Source: a virus. Taken from it: DNA of 64,000 nucleotides. Shown in pieces: positions 1,059-47,397 of the stretch. The stretch's first letter is position 1. The number at the start of each line of letters is the position of its first letter. The stretch is taken from positions 1 to 64,000 of IMG/VR virus record IMGVR_UViG_3300046791_000298; one strand, given 5' to 3'. The notes beneath the pieces were generated by a model. The model did not search any database. It saw only the letters and a program-made list of their open reading frames with translations, and was not told where the DNA came from. Position numbers and translations under genes: made by a program.

Positions 1059-1688
1059 ATGGTAATGACATTAGATGACCTAGCTATCAAGCACGGAGCC
1101 GACAAAGCGAGCACCACTCACAACTATACGCCAGTATATGAGAGGTTCTTTAGCCCTCTCAGGGACAAGGAATTGACGCTATTTGAAATTGGGTTTGGTG
1201 GATACAACTTCCCAGACAGGGGAGGGGCCGGAGCAAAAATGTGGCATGATTACTTCCTTCGCGGTAAAATTATCACTCTCGATTTGCATGAAAAGAATCC
1301 ATTAAACTACGATCGGATCAAATTTTACAGAGGTAGCCAGGAAGATGCACCCTTTCTGCGTAGTGTTGTTGATATTGAGGGTGCGCCTGATATCATCGTG
1401 GATGACGCCTCACACATTAGTCCTCTCACAATTCGAACATTTGAAATTCTTTTCCCATTGTTGAAATCTGGAGGCTGGTATATTATCGAGGATCTCCACG
1501 CCAGTTATTGGGATGTTCCCGCTACCGATGGGACTGATTTCAAGGGCGGTATCAATAACCCCAAGGCAGTTCTGAATTTCCTTAAGTCATTGGTTGACTC
1601 ACTTAACCATGTCCACTGCCCTATACCTAGCCAGAAAATCCACGGCATCCATTTCTTCGAAAAAATAGTATTCATCCAAAAATCCTAA
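1059..1688 (+). CDS. SAM-dependent sugar O-methyltransferase, MycE/TylE-like
   Basis: HGADK..HNY, LFEIGFGGY, MWHDYF, DIIVDDASH, LKSGGWYIIEDL. Confidence 0.75.
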   Translation: MVMTLDDLAIKHGADKASTTHNYTPVYERFFSPLRDKELTLFEIGFGGYNFPDRGGAGAKMWHDYFLRGKIITLDLHEKNPLNYDRIKFYRGSQEDAPFLRSVVDIEGAPDIIVDDASHISPLTIRTFEILFPLLKSGGWYIIEDLHASYWDVPATDGTDFKGGINNPKAVLNFLKSLVDSLNHVHCPIPSQKIHGIHFFEKIVFIQKS

Positions 1689-1691
1689 CCT

Positions 1692-2399
1692 ATGCTTGTA
1701 CCATTAAAAAGACAATTACTGGACCTCGACAATGTTGAAGGTCCTGACATGCTCATGAGAAGAACTGAGGGACTTGATTGGCCCGCGAAGGCGGAGACAA
1801 TGATTGGGCTTAAGCGAATGGATAATATCATGTTCTGCTTGATGGAAATTATGGCTAAGGATATCCCTGGTGATGTTCTGGAGGCTGGCGTTTGGCGGGG
1901 GGGAGCCTGTATATTCATGAAGGCTATCCTAAACGAATACAGGAGTGACAAAAAAGTATTTGTTTGTGATTCTTTTGAAGGACTCCCGGCCCCAGAAGTT
2001 ATTCAGGACGCAGGTTCACAACTCCACACTTTCACAGCTTTGGCGGTCCCTCAAAGTGAGGTTGTAAAGAATTTCGAGAAGTATGGACTTCTTGATAACA
2101 ATGTAGTTTTCATTAAAGGGTGGTTTAAGGACACCTTGCCAAAATTAAAAGGGCACACATTTTCACTTATCCGCCTGGATGGAGATATGTACAAAAGCAC
2201 AATTGACCAACTTGAAAATCTGTACGATGGAGTATCAGTTGGTGGGTTCATTATTATCGATGATTGGGCAATCGCAGAAGTCAGGATGGCCTGCGAAGAG
2301 TTTCGCGCTAAACGTGAAATTACAGATGAGGTAATACCGATCGATCAGCTTGGTGTTTACTGGAGGAAGACATGGAGTTTAACCAAAATCGGAGAATGA
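1692..2399 (+). CDS. TylF/MycF/NovP-family O-methyltransferase
   Basis: ETMIG, IPGDVLEAGVWRGG, DSFEGLP, KGWFKDTLP, RLDGDMYKST, GGFIIIDD. Confidence 0.92.
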   Translation: MLVPLKRQLLDLDNVEGPDMLMRRTEGLDWPAKAETMIGLKRMDNIMFCLMEIMAKDIPGDVLEAGVWRGGACIFMKAILNEYRSDKKVFVCDSFEGLPAPEVIQDAGSQLHTFTALAVPQSEVVKNFEKYGLLDNNVVFIKGWFKDTLPKLKGHTFSLIRLDGDMYKSTIDQLENLYDGVSVGGFIIIDDWAIAEVRMACEEFRAKREITDEVIPIDQLGVYWRKTWSLTKIGE

Positions 2400-4639: not shown

Positions 4640-4642
4640 CCT

Positions 4643-5359
4643 ATGGATAACCCCATTGATGTTGTAATCCCTTTGAATCACCGGTCTTTCTGGAACGATA
4701 ATGAATTGAAGTATGCACTTCGATCGGTCCAGAAGCATTTGAAGAATTACCGGGATATCTTCATCATTGGGAATAAACCCAGGGGAGGCATTTTCAATGT
4801 AGGTCACATTCCCTTTCCAGATCAATTCATTTACCCGGCCAGGAACATTTTTGCCAAGGTTATGAAGGCTTGTAAGGTTGAGGCTATCTCGGATAATTTC
4901 TTGTTCATGAATGATGATCACTTTCTACTTCACAATTTTGAGGCTGACAAATTCCCGTTCTTCTTTAAAGGATTTTTAAGAGAAGACTTGAATAACCAGA
5001 CAGATTATAAGCATACTATTGAGAACACAATCAACGTGCTTAATGGATCGCATCCACTCAAAAATTTCGATACGCATACTCCGATACTTTACAACAAGAA
5101 ACGGTTCGTTGAGACACTTGATCTTTACGATTGGGACATCCCACATGCGTATGCTATCAAAAGTTTATATTGCAACGTCCAGAATATCGTTGGCGTTTAC
5201 GAACCTGACGGTAAGATAAGACGGGCTAAGGAGACTACGATGCTAAGGAATTACCTGTCTAGTAAAAAGGTATTCAGTATCGATGACACGGCTATCAACT
5301 CTGACCTTGAGATTTATTTTAAACACTTATATCCAGACAAATCTAAATATGAACTATGA
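4643..5359 (+). CDS. Stealth-like hexose-1-phosphate transferase
   Basis: IDVVIP, NELKYALRSVQKH, FLFMNDDHF, THTP resemble Stealth conserved regions. Confidence 0.65.
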   Translation: MDNPIDVVIPLNHRSFWNDNELKYALRSVQKHLKNYRDIFIIGNKPRGGIFNVGHIPFPDQFIYPARNIFAKVMKACKVEAISDNFLFMNDDHFLLHNFEADKFPFFFKGFLREDLNNQTDYKHTIENTINVLNGSHPLKNFDTHTPILYNKKRFVETLDLYDWDIPHAYAIKSLYCNVQNIVGVYEPDGKIRRAKETTMLRNYLSSKKVFSIDDTAINSDLEIYFKHLYPDKSKYEL

Positions 5360-5739
5360 AAACAACAGTATTAATTCCAATTGAGGACAGAGTTCTCATC
5401 GATCCAGACCCAGCCCCCACAGAACTTGGCGGGCTTAAGATTGCCGACACACATAAGAAAGCACATCAACCACCGAAAGGCACAGTCATTGCTGTCGGTC
5501 CTGGGAAGGCTGATAAATTATTTTTGAAGCGTGTAGGTTCACAAGATTTAGATGGAGAATTAACTCCAGTTGTATCTGATGGAGGTGAACCTATTTATAC
5601 AACTACAACGATGCCGCTCAAGCCTGGCGATAGAGTAATGTACGGAGCTTACGCTAACATGGAAGTGGAGGATCCAAAATCAAAAGAAAAATTTCTGTGT
5701 CTGCGCTTAGCAGATTGCTTCATCTTACTGGATGAGTAG
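5356..5739 (+). CDS. groES: Co-chaperonin GroES with extended roof loop
   Basis: IPIEDRVLI, GGLKIAD, GTVIAVGPG, LKPGDRVMYG. Confidence 0.85.
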   Translation: MKTTVLIPIEDRVLIDPDPAPTELGGLKIADTHKKAHQPPKGTVIAVGPGKADKLFLKRVGSQDLDGELTPVVSDGGEPIYTTTTMPLKPGDRVMYGAYANMEVEDPKSKEKFLCLRLADCFILLDE

Positions 5740-29006: not shown

Positions 29007-30659
29007 ATGAACAAACTCATAATTCCTAAGCACGAGTATTTTAAAAAACTGCAAATTGGTCTGAATAAAATTGCAGATGCCGTCAAATCAACTCTCGGCC
29101 CCCAAGGACAGAATGTAATGATCCAGCACGCTGACGATAGCGTCACAGTCACAAAAGACGGTGTTACAGTCGCAAGCATTGTAAATTTTAAAGATCGCCT
29201 GGAAAATATTGGTGCTAGGCTGATCAAAGATGTGGCACAAAAAACCGTTGACTCTTCAGGGGATGGGACAACAACAGCAACCGTCCTAGCCCAGGCAATC
29301 ATCAATGAAGGATTTAAAAACATTGCTGCAGGCGCAAACCCGATGGAGTTGAAGAAAGGTATTGATCTGGCCGTAGGTCACGTAGTTCGCTGGTTAAAAG
29401 CAGAAAGCCAGCCTATTAAAACAAATGATCAACTCAAAAGCATTGCTACGATTGCAGCTAACAACAATGAAGAGATTGGAAAATTGATAGCTCAGGCATT
29501 CGAGAAAGTTGGTAGTGATGGTATTGTGACGATTGAAGACGGCAAGACCGCAGACACCGAGGTTAGATTTCTGGAGGGCATGCAGTTTGAACGCGGATGG
29601 CAAACGCCACATTTTGTGACTGATAATGGTAAAATGGAAGCGGTTTTGGAGAATCCATTTATTCTGATCCACGACAAGAAAATTACAAACATCAAAGAAC
29701 TCATGCCTGTGATGGAGGCTGTACATGCGGCCAAAGGTTCTATTTTATTAATCTCTGATGATCTTGAGGGGGAGGCGTTCGCTACGATGGTGATGAATAA
29801 ATTACAACACGGACTTAAAATATGTCCAGTCCGTGCTCCGCTGTTCGGAGAATGGAGAAATGCCATTCTGGAGGATTTAGCCATTGTCACAGGAGGCACC
29901 GTGGTAAGCGAGATTTTAGGCATGCGGCTCGATACAATTGATGAGAAAGTGCTTGGGAGGGCTGAAAAGGTAGTTATTAGCCGTGAGAAGACCGTAATCT
30001 TCAAAGGAGCAGGCAAAGAGGAGGCTGTCCAGGCGCGAATAGAGGCGATAAGAGCCCAGATTCCTCAAGCAGTCTCGGAGGTTCAAAAGAACCAGCTGCG
30101 TGCAAGGCTGGCCAAGCTAACTGGGGGCATTGCCATAATTTCAGTTGGAGCCGCGACTGAGATGGAGATGGGCGAAAAGAAGGATCGAATTGATGATGCT
30201 CTGCAGGCCACACGGGCGGCTAAGGAAGAAGGTATCCTGCCAGGCGGAGGTGTCTCGTATTTGAGAGCTAGTGAAGAACTAAATGATGGTTGGGAGAAAT
30301 TGAGCAGAGATGAAAAGACTGGAATAGAAATTGTAAAAAAGGCTTTACGTACCCCCATTGAAACTATACTTGAGAATGCTGGAGAATCAAAGGATGTAAT
30401 AATTAATCAGATTAGAACACGCGATGCTCACGGACCTGAATTGGATTACGGCTACAACGCTAAAACCAGACAGTTCGAGCACTTTATGGAAACTGGCATT
30501 ATTGACCCGACTAAAGTTGCTCGGCTATGCTTGGAGAACGCAGCCAGTGTTGCAGGGATGCTATTGACATCAAGGACCATTATTTACAACGATATCATGC
30601 AAGCACCCCAGGAGCAAATTCGGCCGGATGGTCGTAGCTTTGAGGAACTAGCCAATTAA
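29007..30659 (+). CDS. groEL: Chaperonin GroEL
   Basis: TLGPQG, TKDGVTVA, GDGTTTAT, GANPM, EGMQFERG, KKDRIDDAL, GILPGGG, GIIDPTKV; no C-terminal GGM tail. Confidence 0.97.
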   Translation: MNKLIIPKHEYFKKLQIGLNKIADAVKSTLGPQGQNVMIQHADDSVTVTKDGVTVASIVNFKDRLENIGARLIKDVAQKTVDSSGDGTTTATVLAQAIINEGFKNIAAGANPMELKKGIDLAVGHVVRWLKAESQPIKTNDQLKSIATIAANNNEEIGKLIAQAFEKVGSDGIVTIEDGKTADTEVRFLEGMQFERGWQTPHFVTDNGKMEAVLENPFILIHDKKITNIKELMPVMEAVHAAKGSILLISDDLEGEAFATMVMNKLQHGLKICPVRAPLFGEWRNAILEDLAIVTGGTVVSEILGMRLDTIDEKVLGRAEKVVISREKTVIFKGAGKEEAVQARIEAIRAQIPQAVSEVQKNQLRARLAKLTGGIAIISVGAATEMEMGEKKDRIDDALQATRAAKEEGILPGGGVSYLRASEELNDGWEKLSRDEKTGIEIVKKALRTPIETILENAGESKDVIINQIRTRDAHGPELDYGYNAKTRQFEHFMETGIIDPTKVARLCLENAASVAGMLLTSRTIIYNDIMQAPQEQIRPDGRSFEELAN

Positions 30660-30848: not shown

Positions 30849-31246
30849 AATTAATTTTTGTCATTCTTGCGGCCGCTTGCTGGGGAGTGATGTCGAAATA
30901 TTTATTCCACGGAATTGCTGTACGTCCATATAGTTTTTGGGGCAAAGAGTCCTGGAGGAGAAAATATAAAAGATACATCAATGTGGAACACATGAAAACG
31001 TATACATTGATTAATGCTCCAGATACTCCATATTATCGATTTTTCAAACTCAAATATAAGGAAGCATTTCCGTGGAGTGCAACGTTACTAGTATTTGTAA
31101 CTGATGGATTCCATCTTACTCAATGGTTCATGATCAAATTCGTGATAGCGGCAATCACGCTCGATTGGAGATGGTATTTAGTTTACTGGATTACCTGGAC
31201 TGTAGGATTTACAATCACTTATACATGGCTGAAATGGAGAGAATAA
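30839..31246 (+). CDS. Trp-rich membrane protein
   Basis: SWRRKYK, VFVTDGFHL, several TM segments. Confidence 0.65.
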   Translation: MALKLIFVILAAACWGVMSKYLFHGIAVRPYSFWGKESWRRKYKRYINVEHMKTYTLINAPDTPYYRFFKLKYKEAFPWSATLLVFVTDGFHLTQWFMIKFVIAAITLDWRWYLVYWITWTVGFTITYTWLKWRE

Positions 31247-31247
31247 A

Positions 31248-31634
31248 TTAGCCAGCTGGTGGGTTTTCTTTCTTATCTTCTTCCGAGTCAGTTCCTTTTT
31301 TCCAATGCTTAACACCATCGATGGCTCCTCTAATTCCGAGTGCAGCAAGCAGAATGGTATCGATAATGAACATCACTTTCTCATCTATTTGCCACTTTAG
31401 AAAAAATGCGCTGATAAGTACTCCAGGAAGAAGATACAGAAAAGCATAACCTATGGCCTCCGGCAGTTCCCAATTTTCATTATCACCCTTAAAGCCTCGC
31501 CTTATTTCTTTGTCTTCACGAAAGAGAATGAAATAAATCAACAACATCATAATCAACCACGCAAGGAACCGTTCCCACGATTCGTTATCGTGAGACGTCA
31601 GAAAATCCATAATGCTATCGATTAATTTTTTCAT
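31248..31634 (-). CDS. Multi-TM protein, holin candidate
   Basis: About 3 TM helices and a charged C-terminus, directly after the endolysin. Confidence 0.5.
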   Translation of the reverse strand: MKKLIDSIMDFLTSHDNESWERFLAWLIMMLLIYFILFREDKEIRRGFKGDNENWELPEAIGYAFLYLLPGVLISAFFLKWQIDEKVMFIIDTILLAALGIRGAIDGVKHWKKGTDSEEDKKENPPAG

Positions 31635-32299
31635 GCATTCAAGACGCTGAACATCTTATTTTTAGTAGCACGATCGTAAATGCCGGTTTGTGGTATTCCT
31701 TGATTACGTTGGAATTCAACAAGAGCCGCCCGGGTCTTCTCACCAAAGATTCCATCCGCATTTCCAATATCAAAATTCAACTCCTTCAAAATAAATTGGA
31801 GTTTCTTTACATTCTCTCCTTTGGATCCTACGCGTAATTCCATCTCAGGGAGCTCAGTTGTTTCTACCGCAACGCTGGCTCTACGGAAGGAAGTAATTTT
31901 ATCGACACCATATTTTGCAATACTCACAGCATTACCCTGGTTGCCTCCAATACAGAATACGTGCGTTTTGGTGTGATTGTATCCAATAAAAAATGATACG
32001 TGTCCTTTCCCACTTTCAAGCCCATCACGCTGAAAGACTACGATATCTCCAGGTTCAGGATCATCGGTAGCCATTCCATACAATTCGAAATCTCTGGCTC
32101 TGGCACTACTTGAGAATCCATATTTTGCTTCACGCAATACCCAGTTTGCGAATATCCCGCACCATGGAGTCTCATCATCATTAATCCAATTCGCTCCAAT
32201 GTCGTGAGCATACTGTACGATTGCCTTATTATTCTCATCACCAGCAATTTCTTTTATACCGAGTTGACTTGCTGCAATTTTTACGATTGTTGAATTCAT
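31631..32299 (-). CDS. Endolysin: TIGR02594-type NlpC/P60-like peptidase + peptidoglycan-binding domain
   Basis: DDETPWC, PGDIVVF, GHVSF, GGNQGNAV; GSKGENVKKLQ..L, ADGIFGEKT.AAL..FQ. Confidence 0.85.
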   Translation of the reverse strand: MNSTIVKIAASQLGIKEIAGDENNKAIVQYAHDIGANWINDDETPWCGIFANWVLREAKYGFSSSARARDFELYGMATDDPEPGDIVVFQRDGLESGKGHVSFFIGYNHTKTHVFCIGGNQGNAVSIAKYGVDKITSFRRASVAVETTELPEMELRVGSKGENVKKLQFILKELNFDIGNADGIFGEKTRAALVEFQRNQGIPQTGIYDRATKNKMFSVLNA

Positions 32300-36657: not shown

Positions 36658-37056
36658 TTATACTCTTTGAACAGTTGTTGCTGGGCCGCCATAGCCAGAA
36701 ATATCGAGTTCAATATCCCCAGCTTCTCTAGTAGTTGATGTTGCGCTCATAGGAGCATCCGCATTAAGGCCAGCAATTTTATGGAGTTCATCGAGTTTGG
36801 TGAGATTACCGGTTTGTAATATATTATCTATGAATTGCACTTCACTGGACCCCTTGATCGTTGCAGTATTAGTCTCAATTATTAAAACGTAAATGCCATC
36901 TGCGATAGAAACAGGGGCATCTCCGTAGTAGTGACCAGTTCGGTTTGAATTCTCCGTCATGGTTATATTGGAGCCTATTTGTGTATTCCCCTGCCAAAGT
37001 TTTGCCACAAGGGTTAGCCCTGTTTCAGCAATGACAATATTGATTTCATTGGCCAT
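36658..37056 (-). CDS. Hypothetical virion-type protein
   Basis: MANEINIV...; TATTTTTG -7 element at 37063-37070. Confidence 0.65.
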   Translation of the reverse strand: MANEINIVIAETGLTLVAKLWQGNTQIGSNITMTENSNRTGHYYGDAPVSIADGIYVLIIETNTATIKGSSEVQFIDNILQTGNLTKLDELHKIAGLNADAPMSATSTTREAGDIELDISGYGGPATTVQRV

Positions 37057-37086
37057 TGAGAACAAAAATAGTATAATTTATTCATG

Positions 37087-37118
37087 TTTGCTCGATACGT
37101 ATGGAATCCATATATTTA
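37087..37118 (+). promoter_or_regulatory. Promoter of glycan cassette 2, probably leaderless
   Basis: TTTG, 20-nt spacer, TATATTTA, 4 nt, ATG at 37123. Confidence 0.55.
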
Positions 37119-37122
37119 TCGC

Positions 37123-37266
37123 ATGAATGAGACTGTCAGAAAGGAAATACGCCTCCCGATCAAGACCGTTCAGGATCTTGAAAAATTAGCAGCCATCGAC
37201 CAAAGGAAACTGAAACCATACATGGAGAAGGTATTGAGAGACCACGCTGAAAAACCAAAAAAGTAA
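37123..37266 (+). CDS. Ribbon-helix-helix regulator
   Basis: RKEIRLP...LEKLAAIDQRKLKPYMEKVL strand-helix-helix pattern. Confidence 0.65.
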   Translation: MNETVRKEIRLPIKTVQDLEKLAAIDQRKLKPYMEKVLRDHAEKPKK

Positions 37267-37269
37267 TTT

Positions 37270-38709
37270 ATGAAGAGAATGTCGTTAGGCGTTTGCGTCA
37301 TCGCAAAAAATGAGGAAATTCTTATCGCTAGAATGTTAGAGTCATGCAAATGGGCAGATCAAATCGTGGTATGTGATACTGGGAGTATTGATCGGACAGT
37401 TGAAATATTAAATGGATATCCTAACGTAGAATGTCACAAAGATTACATCTGGGACGATGATTTCGCATCGTGTCAGAACCATGCTAAGGCCAAAATGAAA
37501 ACTGATTGGATCCTAAGTCTGGATTGTGACGAAGTTTTGCTTTCATCTGAAGAAGAAGTTCGTAGTGCAATTGAACTTGGAGAAAAATACATCAGATGCT
37601 TCATGATTGCGGAGGGCAGCAGCCGTCTTGAATTTAATTTCTCCAGGTTATTCCGTAATACTCCAGACATCTATTGGTGCCAACCGATACATAAACATTT
37701 GAATTTACCTGGCGAAGGTGAAGCAATTGGTAACGTTCGTATTATGTTTGGTTATAGCCCAGCACATGCGCTCGATCCTGACAGGGCCTTAAGAATTCTT
37801 GAAAGAGTTGTTGCCCAGGAAGGAGATGCGGCTGGGAGAAATCTATATTACCTCGGTAGAGAGTATTGGTACAAGCAAAGATACAAGGAGTGCACAAAAA
37901 CATTGGGTTGGTATGTTCAGATTGCTAATTGGCCAGCGGAAAAAGCAGAAGCGTTTTTAATAATGGCTCAATGCTACTCAGCACAAGGACTCGATGAGGA
38001 TGCTCGTGATGCATGCCTGCAGGCGATAAAAATTAATTCAAATTTCAAAGAAGCTATTGAATGGATGGCGGGGATATCTACACCTGCCAATGCAGCGCAG
38101 TGGACTCGCATGTCGCGTACAGCAAATAATCAGGATGTGCTGTGGGATAGATCACCAGCCAAGCCGGTTCATGACATTATCTTTTTATCTCCTCATAACG
38201 ATGATGAAACTCTGTATTGCTCGTATACGCTTATGCGTTATCATCCCCTAGTGATTGTGATCACAGATTCACACATCCAACCAGAAAGGGGAGACTTAGG
38301 ATGCACAGCAGAGATCAGAAGAAACGAAACAATAAAAGCAATGAACTTACTCGGGTGCCCAGTGTTGTTTATCGGCATTAAAGATACTGAACTTACTGAA
38401 GAGAATTTACGAGAACGTTTGAAGTTGTTAAATCCCGAAATAATTTATGTGCCAGCCATCCAAGGGGGTAATGCACAACATGATCTTGTTGGGAAGGTTG
38501 GGCTTGAATTATTTGGCAAGAAGTGTGAGAGGTACACGACTTACACTAAAACGGATTTATACACTACAAGCAATTGGGAGGTAAAGCCAACACAGACCGA
38601 AATGGAATTAAAAAATAAAGCGCTTGATTGTTACGAATCTCAATTGAATTTAAGATCAACTGCTCCACACTTTCAAGCGGTAAGAAACCGATCAGAATGG
38701 CTAGTTTAA
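37270..38709 (+). CDS. GT2 glycosyltransferase + TPR + PIG-L de-N-acetylase fusion
   Basis: VIAKNEE, VCDTGSIDRT, WDDDFA, LSLDCDE; YYLGREY TPR-like; LSPHNDDETL, RRNETIKA, NAQHD. Confidence 0.88.
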   Translation: MKRMSLGVCVIAKNEEILIARMLESCKWADQIVVCDTGSIDRTVEILNGYPNVECHKDYIWDDDFASCQNHAKAKMKTDWILSLDCDEVLLSSEEEVRSAIELGEKYIRCFMIAEGSSRLEFNFSRLFRNTPDIYWCQPIHKHLNLPGEGEAIGNVRIMFGYSPAHALDPDRALRILERVVAQEGDAAGRNLYYLGREYWYKQRYKECTKTLGWYVQIANWPAEKAEAFLIMAQCYSAQGLDEDARDACLQAIKINSNFKEAIEWMAGISTPANAAQWTRMSRTANNQDVLWDRSPAKPVHDIIFLSPHNDDETLYCSYTLMRYHPLVIVITDSHIQPERGDLGCTAEIRRNETIKAMNLLGCPVLFIGIKDTELTEENLRERLKLLNPEIIYVPAIQGGNAQHDLVGKVGLELFGKKCERYTTYTKTDLYTTSNWEVKPTQTEMELKNKALDCYESQLNLRSTAPHFQAVRNRSEWLV

Positions 38710-39332
38710 CTAAGATAATGATCTGCCCATATTTCGGGACTATGCCAGAGTGGATTGAGAAGTTTAAACTCCCAAAAGGGTATGATATTATTTTAGACCT
38801 CGACATTGAGGGCTTCAAAAAAAGGGTGAAGGATAAACTTGGCATTGATTATCCTGGCGTTATTGGATCAGGAAAAGTTTGGGATTATCGCTGTGCACTA
38901 GGGTTACTTTATGAAGACGAGATCAAGGATTATGACTTCTGGGGCCATGTGGATTTTGATTGCGTTTTTGGAGATGTCGATAAATGGGTGACTGATGAAT
39001 TTTTGTCAGGGTTGGATGTACATAGTAATCATCACAGTTATGTAAATGGGTGTTGGAGTTTATATCGGAATACCCAACAAGTTAATACCCTGTTCCAGCA
39101 ATATCCGGACTGGAAAGAAAAAATGATTCACCCTGAACCTAATGCGTGGGTCGAGAAAGAATTCTCCAGAACATTAGAGAATTCAGGATTACGGTATAAG
39201 TATACATTTTGGCAGGGATGGCCGTATACATTAACTCCAAATTTATATAAAGATGCAGAAGGAAGACTATACCAAGATGGAGAAGAAGTGATGATGTATC
39301 ATTTTAAACGCAGCAAACGCTGGCCATTATGA
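38697..39332 (+). CDS. DUF6625-like putative glycosyltransferase
   Basis: PYFG.MPEW, DYRCALG, YDFWGHVDFDCVFGD, YHF. Confidence 0.65.
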   Translation: MASLTKIMICPYFGTMPEWIEKFKLPKGYDIILDLDIEGFKKRVKDKLGIDYPGVIGSGKVWDYRCALGLLYEDEIKDYDFWGHVDFDCVFGDVDKWVTDEFLSGLDVHSNHHSYVNGCWSLYRNTQQVNTLFQQYPDWKEKMIHPEPNAWVEKEFSRTLENSGLRYKYTFWQGWPYTLTPNLYKDAEGRLYQDGEEVMMYHFKRSKRWPL

Positions 39333-39757
39333 ACTTAAGACCAATGACAATGGATGATGCCGACTTTATGTTGGAATTGAAGAACGATAATGTAACAAGG
39401 AATTTTGCGCTTCTCACTTCGGAAGAAATAAAAAAAGAAGACCATTATAAATTTCTTGAAAATAACATCCAATATTTTCAAGTCATTGAAGATGGGGGTT
39501 ATAACATGATAAGAGTTGGTGCTTTTCGTATTCAGGATAATGAAATAAGCATTTGGATAGCGCCTAAATTTCGTAATTGTGGATACGCAACATCAACTTT
39601 AAACAAAGTTAAAAAAGATGGTATGACGGCTAAAATTATGGTAGGGAATATCCCATCAATTAATGCTTTTATTAATGCTGGGTTCAGGCCGCATGATTTA
39701 ATACAAGTACCCCTAACGCATTACATTCTCACTTACACGGCAGAGCGATGGGGATGA
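39329..39757 (+). CDS. GNAT N-acetyltransferase, PseH-like
   Basis: LRPMTMDD...LKND..TR, PKFRNCGYA, NIPSINAFINAGF. Confidence 0.75.
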   Translation: MNLRPMTMDDADFMLELKNDNVTRNFALLTSEEIKKEDHYKFLENNIQYFQVIEDGGYNMIRVGAFRIQDNEISIWIAPKFRNCGYATSTLNKVKKDGMTAKIMVGNIPSINAFINAGFRPHDLIQVPLTHYILTYTAERWG

Positions 39758-40317
39758 AAATAATTCTAATTGGATATCCAGGCTCTCAGAAGATAGTGCC
39801 AGCCAGTAAATACCTGACATCGAAGTACCTGCCAGGGTTTGATATTACGTATCTTAATTACAAAGGGGATATTAATGGGTGGGCACAGTATGTTGCAGAT
39901 TTTTTGGAGTACTTGACTGACGGCAAAATTATTTTTGCATTAGATGATTATTTAGTGTGTGGACCCCTTGATGAGAAAATTTACAAAGAGGCTAATAGTG
40001 CTGTCGGCACTATCGATGGGAGGCTAGTGTGTGTTAAGTTATGTGAATGCTCAGAACAGGAGCACGAAGAATATCCATCGACAACACAATATACAATTTG
40101 GGATCGTCTGTTTTTAATTAAACTACTTAGGCAAGTCTCTACACCATGGCAATTCGAGATTGAAGGAAGTAAAATTATGAAGCAAATTGGTGTACATACT
40201 ATTGTAAAATCATGTATCCCATATTTTACTAACTCATCACTTTCAAATCGATGGAGTGGAATAAGATGGGATGGTTTAAAAGAAGATGATATTAGAGAGA
40301 TAAACCAATCTTTATGA
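39748..40317 (+). CDS. Putative GT-A fold glycosyltransferase
   Basis: IIFALDDYL, QYTIWDR..L, PWQFEIEGS; cassette context. Confidence 0.5.
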   Translation: MGMKIILIGYPGSQKIVPASKYLTSKYLPGFDITYLNYKGDINGWAQYVADFLEYLTDGKIIFALDDYLVCGPLDEKIYKEANSAVGTIDGRLVCVKLCECSEQEHEEYPSTTQYTIWDRLFLIKLLRQVSTPWQFEIEGSKIMKQIGVHTIVKSCIPYFTNSSLSNRWSGIRWDGLKEDDIREINQSL

Positions 40318-40736
40318 AGGAGATAGCATTTAGCGGAAAAATTGGTGCTGGATTAAAATTCAAAGTAAGTGATAAATCATTCAAAAAAGTATCGAAACGG
40401 ACTCTTATTACTCTTCAAAGATATCTAAAGAATTTTCCAAAGGGAGTTGAAACCGACCATCGTGACGGAGATAAATTAAATTACCAATTAGCTAATCTTC
40501 GGCCAGCTACTCATCAACAAAATGCGATGAATAGAGGTAGACAAAAAAATAATTATTCATCAAAATATAAAGGTGTATGCTGGCACGATCAGCGCCAAAA
40601 ATGGTATGCACGAATACATATATCAGGGAAACAAATTAGTTGCGGACTTCATTCTTCTCAGAAAAAAGCGGCAATTGCTTACGATAAAAAAGCAAAAAAA
40701 TTGTTTGGTAACTTCGCAAAACTTAATTTCCAATAA
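40314..40736 (+). CDS. HNH-AP2 homing endonuclease
   Basis: TDHRDGDKLN..LANLRPAT.QQNAMN; SSKYKGVCW, KWYARI, AAIAYD. Confidence 0.88.
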   Translation: MKEIAFSGKIGAGLKFKVSDKSFKKVSKRTLITLQRYLKNFPKGVETDHRDGDKLNYQLANLRPATHQQNAMNRGRQKNNYSSKYKGVCWHDQRQKWYARIHISGKQISCGLHSSQKKAAIAYDKKAKKLFGNFAKLNFQ

Positions 40737-40737
40737 T

Positions 40738-41610
40738 ATGAAGCGCATTTGCATCTTTGGCGGATCCGGATTCCTTGGCACCGCACTAATTGAGAAATTG
40801 ATCTCAATGGGAGAATTAGATATTGTAACCGTGGCTAGGAATGAAGGAGGGCTCGTAAAATTGAAAGAGAGGTTCCCAACCGTTGAAATAATAGTTGGGG
40901 ATATCGCTGATCGATGGGTTGTACAAAAAGCCATGAGTTGCGCTAATGATGTCTATTTACTGAGTGCTATGAAGCATGTTGGTCTTGCTGAGACTGATGT
41001 AAATACATGTGCCAAAACAAATATTATCGGCACAATGAATGTAATAGAAGAATCGATCATCACAGTGCCAGATATTTTAATGTTTATTAGTTCCGATAAA
41101 GCCGCCCAGTCAACAGGTGTGTATGGATGCACAAAAAAGATTGGAGAGAAATTAATGAAGGAAGCTGAGGGGATAAATCGTTACACGAAGTATAGAGTTA
41201 TCAGATATGGCAATGTGTGGGGGAGTACAGGAAGTATCAGCACAAAATGGAAGCCTAAAATGTTGGCTGGAGAAGAGGTGATAATAACGGATCCGGAAGC
41301 CTCAAGATTCTTCTGGGAAGTTGGCGATGCTGTTGATGTAATTTTTAAATGTATTGATGTGGCCATTAATGCAACTCCATCAATACCAATTATGAAGGCA
41401 GTAAAAATGGGTGTTGTTTTAAATGCATGCATGGAAGTTTGGGGTCAGTCACCCGTAAAAATCATCGGCCTTCAACCAGGAGAGAATAAAGTTGAGACCA
41501 CTGATGGCATCACATTCAGTGATAGTGTAGAACAGTTTACCCGTTCTGAATTCATTGATAAGTTTCTGAAAAAGAGAGCAAATGAAAGTAAGCGCAGTAC
41601 TGATCACTAA
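40738..41610 (+). CDS. UDP-GlcNAc 4,6-dehydratase-like SDR (PseB/CapD family)
   Basis: GGSGFLG, GDIAD, AMKHV, TNIIGT.NV, SSDKA, YGCTK, RYGNVWGSTGS, GLQPGE. Confidence 0.88.
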   Translation: MKRICIFGGSGFLGTALIEKLISMGELDIVTVARNEGGLVKLKERFPTVEIIVGDIADRWVVQKAMSCANDVYLLSAMKHVGLAETDVNTCAKTNIIGTMNVIEESIITVPDILMFISSDKAAQSTGVYGCTKKIGEKLMKEAEGINRYTKYRVIRYGNVWGSTGSISTKWKPKMLAGEEVIITDPEASRFFWEVGDAVDVIFKCIDVAINATPSIPIMKAVKMGVVLNACMEVWGQSPVKIIGLQPGENKVETTDGITFSDSVEQFTRSEFIDKFLKKRANESKRSTDH

Positions 41611-42118
41611 AGAACCTGAATATCCTAAACTGGTATTGGAGAGAATTCAGACAGGCTTCTTTGATGAGGTTCTTATTGGAACAAAAAGTCCATCAGTTTA
41701 TAGGCGGTACCAAATCGCTGGACAAGCAAAAAATGACATCATTTATTTCCAGGATGACGATTGCTTTACAAATTATCAAATGCTCTTCAAGCAATACAAT
41801 GGCCAAATTACAAACTCGATGACCAAATCATTTCAGGATTTTTATGAACCGCTAGGGTGTACGCTTATGGGTTGGGGCTCCTTCTTTCCAAAAGAAATGC
41901 TGAGGGTATTTGATCGCTACATTCAAGTACATGATGACGATGAGCATCTGCTCCGTGAGGCCGATAGAATCTTCACTTATCTTAATAAACCATTCAACAC
42001 TGTGATCATGCCTCACCAAGATTTACCACAAACATCAGATAGGATGTCTTCTCCAAAAAATGTGGACTTTCATTTTAAATCAATGCATGAAGCATTAAGA
42101 AAGTGTAGTTTACTTTAA
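41582..42118 (+). CDS. Small GT-A glycosyltransferase
   Basis: AKNDIIYFQDDDC, LMGWGSFF, EADRIF. Confidence 0.65.
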   Translation: MKVSAVLITKEPEYPKLVLERIQTGFFDEVLIGTKSPSVYRRYQIAGQAKNDIIYFQDDDCFTNYQMLFKQYNGQITNSMTKSFQDFYEPLGCTLMGWGSFFPKEMLRVFDRYIQVHDDDEHLLREADRIFTYLNKPFNTVIMPHQDLPQTSDRMSSPKNVDFHFKSMHEALRKCSLL

Positions 42119-42120
42119 GA

Positions 42121-42564
42121 TCACAAATCAAACCTAAATGGCGGAGTAAATCCTGCTCGAAAATCTGGGCCTAATGCCTCTTCTAGAGTTATGACTTGAA
42201 GATTGAATGGTTCTGGGTCATCTGTTAAACTAGTACAGACTTCTGATGTAGATATACTTAATACATTAATTATTTGCGGTGTAACTCCATCTGGATGTCT
42301 ATTTATCCACCCGAAGGCAGATAAATTGTAATATGGGAGTACTAATCCAGCATCGGGATTATATGCGACATACGCTTGTCCGGAACAGTTTGGTTCATCA
42401 TAATAAAGTTCTAAATTTTCTTCTTCCCCTATTTTATCTCCAAAAACAGGCATGATATAATTCTTACCGCTTACTTTGAAATTAACAAAGGCGGTATCGT
42501 TGCCAAAGAATGAAATAAATGTCCCAACTGTTTTCCCTGTTGAGTCGATAATTTTTGATGCCAT
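42121..42564 (-). CDS. Hypothetical protein
   Basis: 147 aa; YYDEPNCSGQAY, FTPPFRF; follows the collagen gene. Confidence 0.65.
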   Translation of the reverse strand: MASKIIDSTGKTVGTFISFFGNDTAFVNFKVSGKNYIMPVFGDKIGEEENLELYYDEPNCSGQAYVAYNPDAGLVLPYYNLSAFGWINRHPDGVTPQIINVLSISTSEVCTSLTDDPEPFNLQVITLEEALGPDFRAGFTPPFRFDL

Positions 42565-42581
42565 GATTTTTTATTTTTATT

Positions 42582-43661
42582 TTAACCTATTAGTCTATTA
42601 AGTAGTACCCATCTATTAAGATTATTTGCTGTATCATATTGGAATTGCATTACCATTCTTTGACCTTTCTTAATTTGCATGGGCAGCATAATAGGCAATA
42701 ACCCTGCACTACCACCCTGCGTTCCCCCTGTAGCGGCTGCTAGATAAAATGCAGTGTACCCGAATGTCGCATCCACCCACGTTATATTTTGTGTTGCAGC
42801 AGTAGCAACTATACATATATCCAAATACTGTCCATCATTAGCCGTACCGGATGTTATCTTAAAATTGGCAGCCGTTGCCTGAGCTGTTAGTTTATATATA
42901 TTATCTGTAAGCGCATTCGGTTGCGGGGTATTTGTACTCCCAGTTGCCGCAACAACTGGACTTATAAGATTATTAGTTCCGACTGAACCTTGTGACCCCT
43001 GTGATCCAAGAGTCCCCATAGTTCCTTGTGTCCCCTGTGCGCCTGTAGGACCTGTAGGACCAGGCACCGTTGAAGCAGAACCAATACTTCCTTGCGTGCC
43101 TTGTGTTCCCTGCGGACCAGTAGGGCCACTCACTGTTGATGCTGAGCCAATACTACCCTGAGTCCCTTGAGCACCTTGAGCACCCGTAGCACCAGTTGGG
43201 CCTAAACTTCCTTGCGTACCCTGAGTACCTTGCACCCCCTGGATTCCAATTGATCCCTGCGTTCCTTGTGGACCAGTAGGACCCGTAGGACCTGTAACAG
43301 TTGACGCTGACCCCTGGCTGCCCTGCGTACCCTGAGCACCAGTGGCGCCTGTAGGACCAAGACTACCCTGTGTCCCCTGTGTGCCTTGTGGCCCGGTTGG
43401 CCCACTTACAGTAGACGCAGAACCCTGACTTCCTTGAGACCCCCTAGTGCCCTGTATCCCCTGTGATCCAGTCGCTCCAGTTGGACCTAGTGGTCCTTGT
43501 ATTCCAATTGAACCTTGAGTCCCCTGTGGTCCTGTAGGACCCGATACTGTCGAGGCCGATCCTTGACTGCCCTGGGTTCCGTGTGTCCCTTGAGGGCCAG
43601 TAGGACCAGTATGTCCGGTTCCTCCGGTTGGGCCAAGTACTATGATGGGAGTAGCAATCAT
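42582..43661 (-). CDS. Collagen-like (Gly-X-Y) fibre protein with C-terminal globular domain
   Basis: About 220 aa of GPT/GTQ/GSQ triplets interrupted by SASTV(S/T/P) linkers. Confidence 0.88.
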   Translation of the reverse strand: MIATPIIVLGPTGGTGHTGPTGPQGTHGTQGSQGSASTVSGPTGPQGTQGSIGIQGPLGPTGATGSQGIQGTRGSQGSQGSASTVSGPTGPQGTQGTQGSLGPTGATGAQGTQGSQGSASTVTGPTGPTGPQGTQGSIGIQGVQGTQGTQGSLGPTGATGAQGAQGTQGSIGSASTVSGPTGPQGTQGTQGSIGSASTVPGPTGPTGAQGTQGTMGTLGSQGSQGSVGTNNLISPVVAATGSTNTPQPNALTDNIYKLTAQATAANFKITSGTANDGQYLDICIVATAATQNITWVDATFGYTAFYLAAATGGTQGGSAGLLPIMLPMQIKKGQRMVMQFQYDTANNLNRWVLLNRLIG

Positions 43662-44274: not shown

Positions 44275-47200
44275 TTAAGTTTTTAAGCACGCCACCAATT
44301 TACTTATTTTTTTGCGCACACCCATGAGGGTATCGTGGGCACTCCCAGCATTGATTTCCTCATGGATATATTTTAAAGAAGGGACCGATACAGATACAGT
44401 GGTTTCCCTAGCTTCTGGGGATAGAATTTGATTCTCTGAAATTTCTTGAGTTAGTCCCTCAGAGCCGCCTTGTTGAGGCTTTCCAGCATTCGTTTGCTGC
44501 GTGCTCTCATTGACTGCCTGGTTGGAGACGTTGGACGTTGATACAGTTTTTGTTTCTCCAGTGGAAGCTGGTCGTACTCCTTCTGCGTAATCGCGTCTTT
44601 TGATGGTGAGTCCTTCGTACTGAGATTTTGTGATTTTTCCTTCATTATATAGCTTTTCTGTGATTCCTGTGAGCTTTTTCTCCAGTTCTTTAGCAGTATA
44701 AGGAATTTCAGGGATTTTAGCAATTCTTACCTCCTTTGCATTCCCAGCCCCCCTGCTATTATCAATAACGGTAAAATGGACTTTACTGTTACCTTTATAT
44801 TGCCTCATTAACTGATCAATATTTACCCGGGAACCGATATGAGTTTGGGCATGTATAAAAATAGGAACCGTCCGCCCGAAACCGTCAGATTTTTTATCCA
44901 ACATTCTTTTGATAACACCGTTTTCAAAGGCTTCAACTGGATCACGATATGTGTATCGGATATCGATATCTTTAACTCCAGCATTAAGAGCTTTATCAAT
45001 TTTCTCTTTAGCGGTTTCAAAATGATCAAGATTGCCGTCATAAATAAAACGAACACTGTTTGGATCCTCACCCTCTAAGGAAACAGTCTTACCTGAACCA
45101 GTTCCTCCACTTGTAAATATTCCAGTATTCTCTTCGCCCTTTAAGAACCACTCAGCATCAAGTTTCTCCTGGTATAATTTTCTTATAAAGGCCGCGGCAG
45201 GTTCGTGTACTGCGGATGATAACGCGCGATTATCCTCATAATCCTTTGAAAGTTCGCGTGCATTATCGGCATTCAGGACATTGCCAAATTTCTCTTTATA
45301 GGTCTTCTTGGCCTCCCCAAAATTCTCATTCAAGTACTTACCGAACTTAGTTTCAACTGCTTTTTGCTCTGGAGAAAGTGATGGTTCTGGAGTATATGGG
45401 ACAGGTTGCTTTTCTTTCAGCTTGTAAGCAAATGCCTTTTCTCCGTTGGCCAGAGTGATTTCCTCGCGTTGATATTTATTTTCATATTTATCTAGCTTCT
45501 CTAATTGCTGAGGGCTCAATTCCATAACCTGGCCAGGGACCTTATCTTCTCCTGATTCAAGTGTGGTATAACCATCTCCAACATCCTTCACCTTGCCGGT
45601 TGTTTCCGCGGATGTAGTTGTCACATCTTCTCCTAATGCTTGTTTCCTTGTCTCCGCATCTTTTAGTGTTCCATAAACGAATACCTTTTTTACTCCTTCT
45701 TTGACCACCGGCTCTTTGGCCGTTTCTTTTTCTCCTTCGAGATTCGCTTGGGCAGTTTCTTTCCCTTCGACGCCTGGTTCCACTCGTCCACGTTTACTCC
45801 CTGGGACTCCAGCTTCTCCCTGTTCGCGTTGAAGTAACCCCTCTGTGCTTGGCTTTTGTAAGGCATTTTGTATCCCCTCCTCGGATTTTATTTGTTCAGA
45901 GTTATCTACACTTTGTTGAATAGCCTCGGCTGATTTATCAAGAGCATTGATATCGTTCGGATCAACATTTTTTTGTTCTTCTTTAATAACAGTAGTTGCA
46001 TTCTTTCCAAGGTCCCCAGCTGGAACCGATAAATTATTTTCATTGAATTCAGAAATAGCTGTAACTGATCCGAAGACTGCTCCAGGAGCGAACCCCTGCA
46101 TCCCTGCATTGAATGCACGCTGATGATTAACATTAGCCATTGCCTCTGTAAGAGTCATGCCATTTGCTAGTAATGCTCCAACCTGTTGATCAACGTCCTG
46201 TAAATATTCAGTTGCAAATTCTCCACCTCCGGCTATTCCGATATCTTTCAGCGCTCCTTTAACACCAAATTTTACAACCTGTTCAAGTACTTGTTTTTTT
46301 GCTGATTTTAGAAAGACTTGTTTTATGGCTTTCCCTGCTCCTGCTAAAAAACCAAGACCCTCAAGCCCCATACTGATTAGACCGACAGTGTTGGCGATAT
46401 TTTCATCCGATTGATTCTCTTCTTTCGTCTGAATCTTTTCAAGACTTATCGGTGTGATCTCTGTTCCAAATTTTTCGCTTAAGTTTTGCGCCTTCTTTGC
46501 TCGAATTTCATCAAGAGCATCGTAACGCTCCATCTTAAATAGAATAACTGGAGATGTGGCAAACCCAATTGAACTAGCAACTCCTTGCCCAACACTTCCT
46601 TCTAACCATTTCTCGAAATCTTTAGCCGATTTGATCGAAGTAAAATCTTGAGGTATGCCTTTTAAGTTTTCTTGTCCTTGTGTCTGATTGGCAACAATTT
46701 TTTCTTTCTCAAAGGTATCTCTGGTCTTTTGGATCAATCGGTTTACTTCGTCTTTGTAAAATCCCATCACTCTTTCAGGAGAGGTATTTGATGATTTCGA
46801 GGCGCGAAGTAAAATATTGTATGTATCCTTTGCTGCTCTATTTTGATTAGGATGAAGTTGCGTACCGGGTTCTTGTGCGGCTCTTTCTTTGTATTCAGCC
46901 AATAGGTCTTTTAATGGAGTTGACTTAATCTTCTCCATTGTCAGAATCCCTGTCTCTTCAGCATCGGTTGGTCCCTGGTCCGCCTTCTTCAATAACTCCT
47001 CATAATTTGTAGGCATACTTTTTAAAGCCTCACGATGGATAACTAGGGGAGTCGCAGTTGTAAAAAAATTAACAAATGATCTTACTAGAGCATCTCCAAT
47101 CCCTGTTGGGTTTAATGGATTATAGCCTGTATGGAGTTCCCCTCCCGTATTCTTTTCGGAAGGCTTTGGCGAAGGCTCTTGAACCACTGATGATACCCCT

Positions 47201-47397
47201 GTAGAAACGACCGGCTTTTGTGCGGTGAAACCATCTGAGGATTTTTGGTCTTCTGTAGTAGGCTCTTTTTTTTTTACTTGGTTGAGTTGCCGAAGGATTG
47301 GATCCTCTTCCTCGGACGTAGTCTGTTCCTCAACCTTTTTTTTTGGCTTCGATCCGTTTAATTTCTTGAGAATGGGGTCATCTATCTCTTCTGCCAT
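44275..47397 (-). CDS. Polyvalent virion-type protein with GGCT/AIG2-like and zeta-toxin-like kinase domains
   Basis: Gly-rich hydrophobic segments; VFVYGTLK...VPGQV..L....LEKLDKYE (GGCT); TSGGTGSGKT, IYDGNL, YRDPVEA, GRTVP (zeta-like). Confidence 0.75.
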   Translation of the reverse strand: MAEEIDDPILKKLNGSKPKKKVEEQTTSEEEDPILRQLNQVKKKEPTTEDQKSSDGFTAQKPVVSTGVSSVVQEPSPKPSEKNTGGELHTGYNPLNPTGIGDALVRSFVNFFTTATPLVIHREALKSMPTNYEELLKKADQGPTDAEETGILTMEKIKSTPLKDLLAEYKERAAQEPGTQLHPNQNRAAKDTYNILLRASKSSNTSPERVMGFYKDEVNRLIQKTRDTFEKEKIVANQTQGQENLKGIPQDFTSIKSAKDFEKWLEGSVGQGVASSIGFATSPVILFKMERYDALDEIRAKKAQNLSEKFGTEITPISLEKIQTKEENQSDENIANTVGLISMGLEGLGFLAGAGKAIKQVFLKSAKKQVLEQVVKFGVKGALKDIGIAGGGEFATEYLQDVDQQVGALLANGMTLTEAMANVNHQRAFNAGMQGFAPGAVFGSVTAISEFNENNLSVPAGDLGKNATTVIKEEQKNVDPNDINALDKSAEAIQQSVDNSEQIKSEEGIQNALQKPSTEGLLQREQGEAGVPGSKRGRVEPGVEGKETAQANLEGEKETAKEPVVKEGVKKVFVYGTLKDAETRKQALGEDVTTTSAETTGKVKDVGDGYTTLESGEDKVPGQVMELSPQQLEKLDKYENKYQREEITLANGEKAFAYKLKEKQPVPYTPEPSLSPEQKAVETKFGKYLNENFGEAKKTYKEKFGNVLNADNARELSKDYEDNRALSSAVHEPAAAFIRKLYQEKLDAEWFLKGEENTGIFTSGGTGSGKTVSLEGEDPNSVRFIYDGNLDHFETAKEKIDKALNAGVKDIDIRYTYRDPVEAFENGVIKRMLDKKSDGFGRTVPIFIHAQTHIGSRVNIDQLMRQYKGNSKVHFTVIDNSRGAGNAKEVRIAKIPEIPYTAKELEKKLTGITEKLYNEGKITKSQYEGLTIKRRDYAEGVRPASTGETKTVSTSNVSNQAVNESTQQTNAGKPQQGGSEGLTQEISENQILSPEARETTVSVSVPSLKYIHEEINAGSAHDTLMGVRKKISKLVACLKT

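Follow-up and report, generated by a model that had tools for sequence, protein, structure and literature searches.

What is a compact set of sugar-handling genes doing among the presumed structural genes of an uncultured phage, beside a gene for a collagen-like fibre? The question is raised by positions 37,123 to 43,661 of a 64,000-nucleotide stretch of viral DNA (the window, which here means the whole stretch that was analysed), the first 64 kb of the 76,829-bp virus record IMGVR_UViG_3300046791_000298. A preliminary description of the window, made from its letters, had proposed that the phage makes a sugar of its own and uses it to decorate its collagen or fibre proteins. From the comparative analysis reported here we consider it probable that the gene set, hereafter the cassette, encodes a system that O-glycosylates virion proteins in the cytoplasm and tailors the attached glycans, its main acceptor being the neighbouring Thr/Ser-rich collagen-like fibre. 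Decoration of the fibre draws comparative support from the homology of the lead enzyme, from neighbourhood tests run in both directions and from a gene layout that recurs in relatives, and is opposed by a related genome that carries the cassette and no collagen-like gene.

The cassette forms a compact block on the + strand (37084-42118) that breaks up a long block of - strand genes, as the preliminary description had it. Only 2 nt part its final stop codon, at 42118, from that of a convergent - strand gene, and the collagen-like gene, next upstream on that strand, is 464 nt away from the end of the cassette, so that the proposed convergence of cassette and collagen operon was borne out. The assignment of the surroundings to a virion module leans on weak matches: a crAss 'muzzle' C-terminal domain in a large protein of the window (28.3 bits against a cut-off of 27), a PHROG annotated as 'virion structural protein' and a gene order shared with relatives.

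The lead enzyme of the cassette combines a GT2 glycosyltransferase domain, a TPR region and a PIG-L domain in one polypeptide. Its Pfam matches above cut-off were to Glycos_transf_2 (31.5 bits), Glyco_tranf_2_4 (32.2 bits) and PIG-L (PF02585, 44.5 bits against 28.2). Single TPR models remained below cut-off (TPR_1, 18.4 bits against 27.8); the family profile, in turn, matched consensus TPR proteins over residues 165-270 with E values of 1e-8 to 1e-9, and homologues of the fusion bear precomputed TPR matches in Pfam, which upholds the three-domain call made at the outset. A profile built from 18 homologues was run against the PDB and found the flagellin transferase GmaR as its best match (E 7e-29), followed by ThuS/SunS (E 3e-19 to 2e-16). 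The NCBIfam model of SunS gave 34 bits against a cut-off of 350, and the phage protein is thus a relative of SunS and not an equivalog or ortholog; a weak BshB1 match was also found in NCBIfam. The DxD motif of the GT2 domain (D85/D87) was invariant across 18 and across 19 homologues, as were PIG-L residues H309, D311, D312 and H404 across 18, which we take, from knowledge of the PIG-L family, to be zinc ligands and catalytic base. By descent, therefore, the lead enzyme is related to protein glycosyltransferases, and sugar transfer to Ser, Thr or Cys is itself predicted for it.

More than 800 homologues of the lead enzyme occur in metagenomes, many on contigs of 60-80 kb. The place of PIG-L beside the GT2-TPR core is taken in other uncultured phages by a methyltransferase, sulfotransferase or GT-A domain, and these swapped second domains would fit a role in editing the sugar after its transfer. 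Fusions to a methyltransferase were seen at loci L008, L010, L018, L020 and L040, to a sulfotransferase at L015 and L031, and to a domain like C178 (the last protein of the cassette, see below) at L007 (2333-3841); most of the genes with these alternative second domains adjoin collagen genes of the GPT type.

The proposed acceptor consists of 67 GXY triplets with five SASTV-type breaks, followed by a C-terminal domain of 131 amino acids. Thr or Ser is present in 79% of the 67 triplets, which are mostly GTQ, GSQ and GPT. The C-terminal domain had no sequence match in the PDB, and the Atlas sets it among viral clusters (score 0.93), a placement that serves as a lead only.

The association of the lead enzyme with such fibres was analysed in two directions, the counts being among loci listed, roughly dereplicated and with flanks of uneven length. 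The forward set came from an alignment-based scan of IMG/VR, in which 75 loci with a GT2-TPR relative were listed and any open reading frame (ORF) in which 10 or more GXY triplets follow one another without a break was scored as collagen-like. Such an ORF was found at 33 of the 75 loci, within 2 kb of the GT2-TPR gene at 27 and within 200 bp at 10. For densities the loci were dereplicated to 58 clusters; collagen-like ORFs then numbered 1.65 per 10 kb at 0-1 kb from the GT2-TPR gene, 0.78 at 1-2 kb, 0.41 at 2-4 kb and about 0.1 at 4-10 kb, which is a roughly 15-fold higher density within 1 kb than at 4-10 kb. Most of the collagen-like ORFs lying within 2 kb (23/26) shared the strand of the GT2-TPR gene, and in most of the collagen neighbours Thr occupied the Y position of 50-94% of the triplets. 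For the reverse test loci were picked by collagen type, each set covering about 1 Mb, and scored for a GT2-TPR-like gene with a hidden Markov model (HMM) at E < 1e-5. Loci with four consecutive GPT triplets held such a gene in 18 of 120 cases (15 of 115 after dereplication), against 1 of 116 (1 of 111) for GxKGD collagens (Fisher p = 4e-5 raw, 3.5e-4 dereplicated), and the lone match in the GxKGD set adjoins a second, Thr-containing collagen ORF. This difference, together with the position of the control match, indicates that the link to GT2-TPR is specific to Thr-rich collagens. The co-occurrence of collagen and glycosyltransferase genes to which the preliminary description had pointed was thus found both ways.

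Related genomes displayed the same pairing in several arrangements. Two genomes, G001 (71 kb) and G002 (75.5 kb), share their cassette proteins with the window at 50-74% identity and the large, collinear proteins of their structural blocks at only 21-30%, and the cassette sits at different places in the structural block of G000, G001 and G002. The cassette has thus either been far better conserved than its surroundings or been exchanged between phages. In G001 two collagen fibres lie 4.5 kb downstream of the cassette, one of them sharing the C-terminal domain of the window fibre. A third relative, G003 (42.7 kb), has the order collagen, 219-aa gene, GT2-TPR, PIG-L plus DUF6625, GDP-mannose 4,6-dehydratase, second short-chain dehydrogenase/reductase (SDR), methyltransferase and C178. 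Among metagenome loci, L411 repeats the convergent cassette-to-collagen layout of the window with a fibre C-terminal domain 62% identical to that of the window fibre, L436 has the collagen gene within the cassette, and in L425, L429, L430, L431, L434 and L435 the collagen gene is directly upstream of GT2-TPR. Across the fibres of these cassette-linked relatives, 76-96% of the triplets contain Thr or Ser. The C-terminal domain of the window fibre is 40-62% identical to that of collagen fibres encoded next to the cassette elsewhere, G001, G003 and L411 among them, and it accompanies cassette variants in G000, G001, G003, L411, L429-L431 and L434-L436.

In G003 (L087, 5210-11807) the GDP-mannose 4,6-dehydratase (393 bits), the second SDR and the methyltransferase replace the UDP-HexNAc-type SDR and the GNAT of the window, while GT2-TPR, PIG-L, DUF6625, C178 and the collagen fibre are retained; the sugar supply differs. 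A nucleotide search with the cassette gave no match among 50,697 cultured-phage records, and a protein search of the same records with the GT2-TPR-PIG-L enzyme gave one partial match only and no real homologue. A scan of cellular genomes with a generic GT2 DxD pattern gave distant GT2 proteins only, which is weak evidence that close homologues are absent from cellular genomes. In Brevibacillus fortis and Lucifera butyrica, GT2 proteins of 370-390 amino acids are encoded directly upstream of GXT (GAT/GET/GVT) collagen genes.

The remaining genes of the cassette and its convergent neighbours are collected with the lead enzyme and the fibre in Table 1. No cassette protein contains a membrane-type segment (maximum KD19 = 1.52). 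The proposed catalytic residues of GT2, PIG-L, SDR, N189 and C178 are invariant or nearly so, and the DUF6625 and GNAT calls of the preliminary description both stood. DUF6625 is a core partner of PIG-L: about 14 proteins join it to GT2-TPR-PIG-L, G003 joins it to PIG-L alone, and in P0235 it is attached to a DegT-like piece. Searches for longer forms of DUF6625 returned fusions only, its cluster search in the Atlas returned DUF6625 clusters only, its comparison with PDB profiles gave nothing at E <= 10, and hhalign against the C178 and GT2-TPR profiles gave nothing. The GNAT is the best-conserved protein of the cassette, with 74% identity to its counterpart in G001.

Table 1. Positions in the 64-kb window of the cassette genes, their convergent neighbours and associated features.
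Feature	Position	Strand	Basis or remark
Promoter-like site TTGGCC-17-TATAAT	37049..37077	+	Consensus match only; immediately precedes the cassette where the coding strand changes
Small leader ORF; 47 aa if started at ATG 37123, 60 aa if started at ATG 37084	37123..37266	+	Family-less
GT2-TPR-PIG-L fusion, 479 aa; proposed initiating protein O-glycosyltransferase and de-N-acetylase	37270..38709	+	Pfam and PDB profile matches
DUF6625 protein, 211 aa	38697..39332	+	Pfam PF20330, 79.9 bits
GNAT N-acetyltransferase, 142 aa	39329..39757	+	Pfam Acetyltransf_3, 30.2 bits, above cut-off
N189, 189 aa, GT-A fold, LDDY motif invariant	39748..40317	+	AlphaFold model with VIA and Foldseek
HNH_3 + AP2 free-standing homing endonuclease	40314..40736	+	Pfam; PHROG 99, 1e-34
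Soluble SDR, Polysacc_synt_2 family, 290 aa, UDP-HexNAc 4,6-dehydratase-like	40738..41610	+	Pfam, 155 bits
C178, 178 aa, GT-A fold, DDD motif invariant	41582..42118	+	AlphaFold model with VIA
147-aa protein, same operon as the collagen-like gene and downstream of it	42121..42564	-	No family match (Pfam, PHROG, NCBIfam)
Collagen-like fibre protein, 359 aa, proposed acceptor	42582..43661	-	Pfam Collagen, 93.6 bits

N189 and C178 of the window had no sequence-family match, in Pfam or otherwise, and AlphaFold (AF2) models of both were built from 30-row alignments (pLDDT 92.3 and 93.5). The N189 model matched B4GALNT1 with a VIA Z of 11.3 and POMGNT1, STIV A197 and GnT-I with 10.5, with matches in Foldseek too, and N189 is probably a glycosyltransferase judging from this fold. 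C178 gave a VIA Z of 12.8 to EXTL3 (root-mean-square deviation 2.9, 162 aligned, 20% identity) and 11.9 to EXTL2, with DPMS tied at 12.2; its model resembles the GT64 alpha-HexNAc transferases most and may be termed GT64-like. A homologue, P0225, carries PF09258 (Glyco_transf_64) somewhere in its sequence. The two further glycosyltransferase-like proteins announced by the preliminary description are therefore real at the level of the fold, with invariant DD and DDD motifs. Viral GT-A structures (Mimivirus R699/R655 and PBCV-1 A64R) were also among the fold matches of both proteins (Z 8.5-9.9).

The SDR retains the motif columns G-x-S-G-x-L-G and S-x-D-K-A ... Y-G-x-x-K-K at 90% conservation or more in 30 sequences. 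Its best NCBIfam match was PseB (TIGR03589), and since the 120 bits obtained lie far under the cut-off of 407.75, the protein is not a PseB equivalog; FnlA scored 83.8 against 730. Of the PseB/CapD-like dehydratase proposed earlier, the family and the catalytic residues thus remain and the PseB identity does not. The nearest cellular homologues are PglF/CapD/FlaA1-like, and their membrane domain is absent from the phage SDR. A DegT/PseC-type aminotransferase (PF01041) was not matched anywhere in the complete genome, and all 14 control genomes gave a match. The '6-deoxy-amino sugar' of the preliminary description consequently divides in two: a 6-deoxy-HexNAc is plausible since the residues of a 4,6-dehydratase are kept, and an amino sugar is unsupported since a sugar aminotransferase is absent from the genome. 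G001 has a DegT/aminotransferase-like piece of about 220 amino acids, covering model positions 23-90 only, between DUF6625 and GNAT (30989-31672, or 10989-11672 of L080); the piece fused to DUF6625 in P0235 is of the same kind, and the window phage has none.

Domains that are separate genes in the window are joined elsewhere. N189, SDR and C178 form a single polypeptide in 15 database proteins, N189 and SDR are fused in 18 more and SDR and C178 in 8, and C178-like domains are elsewhere fused to PIG-L plus GT2 and to GT2-TPR. In the window 29 nt (41582-41610) belong both to the SDR and, in another frame, to C178, where relatives have a single continuous fused frame; the overlap may be either a natural split or a frameshift. 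The simplest reading of these fusions is that they suggest an assembly line, in which GT2-TPR would start a glycan on a protein and the fused partner would edit the sugar just added.

A route through this assembly line can be proposed. The GT2 domain, placed by the TPR region, would move a HexNAc onto Thr and Ser hydroxyls of the collagen-like repeats, for which GTQGSQGPTGPQ and SASTVSGPTGP represent candidate acceptor peptide types. The donor would most likely be GlcNAc from host UDP-GlcNAc, as used by SgtA on BclA3 and by GmaR on flagellin. By analogy with the enzyme pairs PIG-A/PIG-L, MshA/MshB and BshA/BshB, the fused PIG-L domain would then strip the N-acetyl group from the sugar just attached (GlcNAc-O-Thr to GlcN-O-Thr), leaving a glucosamine stub. 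DUF6625, N189 and the GT64-like C178 may lengthen the glycan, and the GNAT may N-acylate an amino sugar, a role made less certain by the lack of a sugar aminotransferase in the genome. The SDR, in which the D-K ... Y-x-x-x-K set of 4,6-dehydratases is kept, would probably furnish a 4-keto-6-deoxy-HexNAc-type donor to the flanking GT-A domains. The likely effects on the particle would be on fibre stability, on shielding against proteases or antibodies, or on adsorption; the acceptor, the donor sugars, the order of the steps and the effect on the virion are all inferred from homology and gene context.

Several observations weigh against the collagen-like fibre as main acceptor and have to be set beside the evidence in its favour. 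The two units of the window are convergent and not co-transcribed, and in G001 a gap of 4.5 kb separates cassette and collagen genes. G002, which is 94% complete, has the full cassette and no collagen-like ORF, and loci L446, L444, L410 and L407 have none in the flanks examined. Thr and Ser of the window fibre sit mostly at X (GTQ, GSQ), and collagen neighbours elsewhere are mostly of the GPT type. The collagen-like protein is a putative virion component, and the likeness of the lead enzyme to SgtA is one of architecture and gene context; identity between the lead enzyme and cellular GT2 proteins in an SgtA-like context reaches only 27-28%. Neither a reductase nor an aminotransferase that could partner the SDR is present in the genome, which leaves the donor-sugar step uncertain; support is comparative throughout, and the phage is uncultured.

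G002 and the other loci without a collagen-like ORF speak for a rival reading, in which the cassette would glycosylate other virion proteins (capsid, tail or non-collagen fibres), as in mycobacteriophages, the collagen neighbour being incidental or a partial target. The genes at the fibre position of G002 encode a 390-aa protein with 25% Ser/Thr and a non-collagen protein whose likeness to the G001 collagen fibre is confined to the N-terminal domain, and the placement of the cassette varies within the structural block of G000, G001 and G002. The adjacency statistics, however, single out Thr-rich collagen genes, and the collagen C-terminal domain accompanies cassette variants across loci; we thus regard this explanation as unlikely, though the best of the rivals. 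Less likely still is an action on the host, in which the cassette would alter a surface glycan or a host protein and, for example, exclude superinfecting phages. Glycosyltransferases near phage fibre genes have usually been assigned to DNA or host-surface modification (PMC7029224, PMC10202952), and sets of SDR, GNAT and glycosyltransferase genes are typical of surface-polysaccharide loci; the nearest cellular relatives of the SDR are, as noted, PglF/CapD/FlaA1-like. Against this, the cassette proteins lack membrane segments, and the phage SDR is without the membrane domain seen in cellular homologues. The Pfam matches of the cassette include no flippase, polymerase or lipid-carrier transferase, and the solved relatives of the lead enzyme act on proteins; alteration of the host would also leave the link to Thr-rich collagen genes unexplained. 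Synthesis and attachment of sugars to phage DNA, as a base hypermodification against restriction, seems very improbable. We know of no counterpart of a PIG-L domain fused to a glycosyltransferase in DNA glycosylation systems, a TPR-bearing GT2 akin to GmaR, SunS and SgtA implies a protein substrate, and the complete genome contains no thymidylate-synthase-type hydroxymethylase, even though phage GT-A and GT-B enzymes that glycosylate hydroxymethylated bases are described (Pyle 2024, as cited in PMC12619734). Host surface and DNA modification had both been named as alternatives in the preliminary description, and both are disfavoured here.

The kind of system that we favour is already known. 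Clostridioides difficile SgtA is a 358-aa GT-A protein with C-terminal TPR, encoded immediately upstream of the collagen-like bclA3, and collagen-repeat peptides offered to it in vitro receive beta-O-GlcNAc on Thr and Ser (PMC7157674). The phage system resembles SgtA/BclA3 in the order of a GT-A/GT2 domain and TPR, in a gene beside a collagen-like gene with Thr-rich GXY repeats, in a soluble enzyme (Mn-dependence has been shown for SgtA) and in a first sugar on Thr/Ser that would be extended or capped by further enzymes; the fibre likewise has the BclA-type make-up of a long Thr-rich GXY array followed by its C-terminal domain. In contrast to SgtA/BclA3, it is phage-encoded, its acceptor would be a putative virion fibre and not a spore coat protein, and its glycosyltransferase is fused to PIG-L and accompanied by DUF6625, GNAT, two mini GT-A domains and a dehydratase-type SDR. 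Listeria GmaR, a flagellin O-GlcNAc transferase, also joins a glycosyltransferase to TPR (PMC9638930), and GmaR and SunS/ThuS share with the phage enzyme the GT2 plus TPR architecture, a cytoplasmic location and a specific protein or peptide as target; their acceptors, however, are flagellin and, for the S-glycosyltransferases SunS/ThuS, glycocin Cys, and none is fused to PIG-L.

In the synthesis of GPI, mycothiol and bacillithiol, a glycosyltransferase adds GlcNAc and a zinc deacetylase of the PIG-L/LmbE family then frees the amine. Unlike PIG-A/PIG-L, MshA/MshB and BshA/BshB, the phage joins both activities in one polypeptide, the proposed acceptor is a protein and not inositol, phosphoinositide or malate, and the transferase is GT2 and not GT4. 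Experimental proof of phage virion glycosylation exists so far for mycobacteriophages. In the account of Freeman et al. 2023 given in PMC12619734, glycosyltransferases encoded by the phage near structural genes decorate virion proteins, and the glycans occupy the C-termini of capsid and tail-tube subunits; they are not on collagen repeats, the hosts are actinobacteria, and the likeness drawn here is one of description. Giant viruses (Mimivirus R699/R655, PBCV-1 A64R) also encode host-independent glycosylation with small GT-A domains, but theirs serves in eukaryotic hosts, and the fold matches reflect generic GT-A similarity, not specific homology. Among the papers searched in full text, none described a pairing of GT2-TPR enzymes and collagen-like fibres in phages. 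What is distinctive here, beside SgtA/BclA3, mycobacteriophage glycans and giant-virus fibrils, is the fused deacetylase together with the modular tailoring domains.

A broader proposal, which we hold tentatively and with slightly less than even confidence, is that uncultured phages widely carry modular fibre glyco-tailoring systems. In these an SgtA/GmaR-like GT2-TPR enzyme would start O-glycans on Thr-rich collagen-like fibres and swap PIG-L, methyltransferase, sulfotransferase and GT-A editors; the resulting de-N-acetylated, methylated or sulfated sugars would tune adsorption, stability or recognition, and the cassette would be exchanged between distant phages, possibly via homing endonucleases. 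If the fibre is indeed the acceptor, a large group of environmental phages would sugar-coat collagen-like fibres with their own soluble enzymes, and glycosylated fibres may be common and overlooked. They would then constitute a hidden variable in host range, particle stability and resistance to antibodies or proteases, and would offer an explanation for the abundance of GXT in phage collagen repeats. Such cassettes could also be a source of compact protein O-glycosyltransferases with built-in sugar-editing domains.

One gene of the cassette region falls outside glycan synthesis. The ORF between N189 and the SDR, absent from the earlier gene list, encodes no glycosyltransferase but a homing endonuclease with HNH_3 and AP2 domains (Pfam, PHROG 99). 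It lies between N189 and the SDR, which 33 database proteins combine in one fused gene, and the N189/SDR split looks like a case of 'genes in pieces' caused by a free-standing endonuclease. Its start overlaps the stop of N189 (ATGA), and the SDR start follows 1 nt after its own stop. A search for a group I intron around the gene gave no Rfam match at E <= 1. Endonucleases of the same HNH_3 plus AP2 type lie at three different cassette junctions in three phages (window, 40314-40736; L001, 11452-11967; L004, 14130-14750), and G001 and G002 each have one at other cassette junctions than the window. A homing endonuclease may thus help to move the cassette.

At the start of the cassette the preliminary description had placed a promoter and a gene for a ribbon-helix-helix (RHH) protein. 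A promoter of its own is implied by the switch of strand at this point; promoter-like sites as such are not enriched in the region (28 against 23 +/- 4.4 in shuffles), which leaves the consensus match in Table 1 with little weight. The RHH assignment found no support, the short leader ORF having no match in Pfam, PHROG or NCBIfam, RHH models included, even at E <= 5, and the leader was not found in the cassettes of relatives.

A second sugar cassette lies at 1059-5359 of the window. Its products are a TylF O-methyltransferase (281 bits), a protein weakly similar to rhamnosyl O-methyltransferase/CmcI (E 0.003), one of 755 amino acids whose N-terminus is GT11-like, and one that matches Stealth_CR2 below threshold. 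The suggestion that it caps the glycan made by the 37-42 kb cassette fits its sugar O-methyltransferase- and GT11-like proteins, yet was not sustained, as G001 and G002 carry the 37-42 kb cassette and do not have this one.

As regards the genome as a whole, at least 100 bases from the start of the record are found again at 76,702; in IMG/VR the record is listed as 100% complete, with direct terminal repeats. The sole sequencing run that matched the stretch was a soil metagenome, which is probably its source, and no RNA run was listed. No tRNA genes were found within the 64-kb window. In the collagen operon, 44275-47397 encodes a 1040-aa protein in which a GGACT domain, of the gamma-glutamyl cyclotransferase-like type, scored 54 bits; a zeta-toxin-like P-loop region of the same protein is borderline, its 21.8 bits falling just short of the cut-off of 22.3. 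Elsewhere in the window a GroES-like protein (Cpn10, 44 bits) is encoded at 5356-5739 and a GroEL (Cpn60, 261 bits) at 29007-30659; a GroEL with 31% identity to the latter is present in G003.

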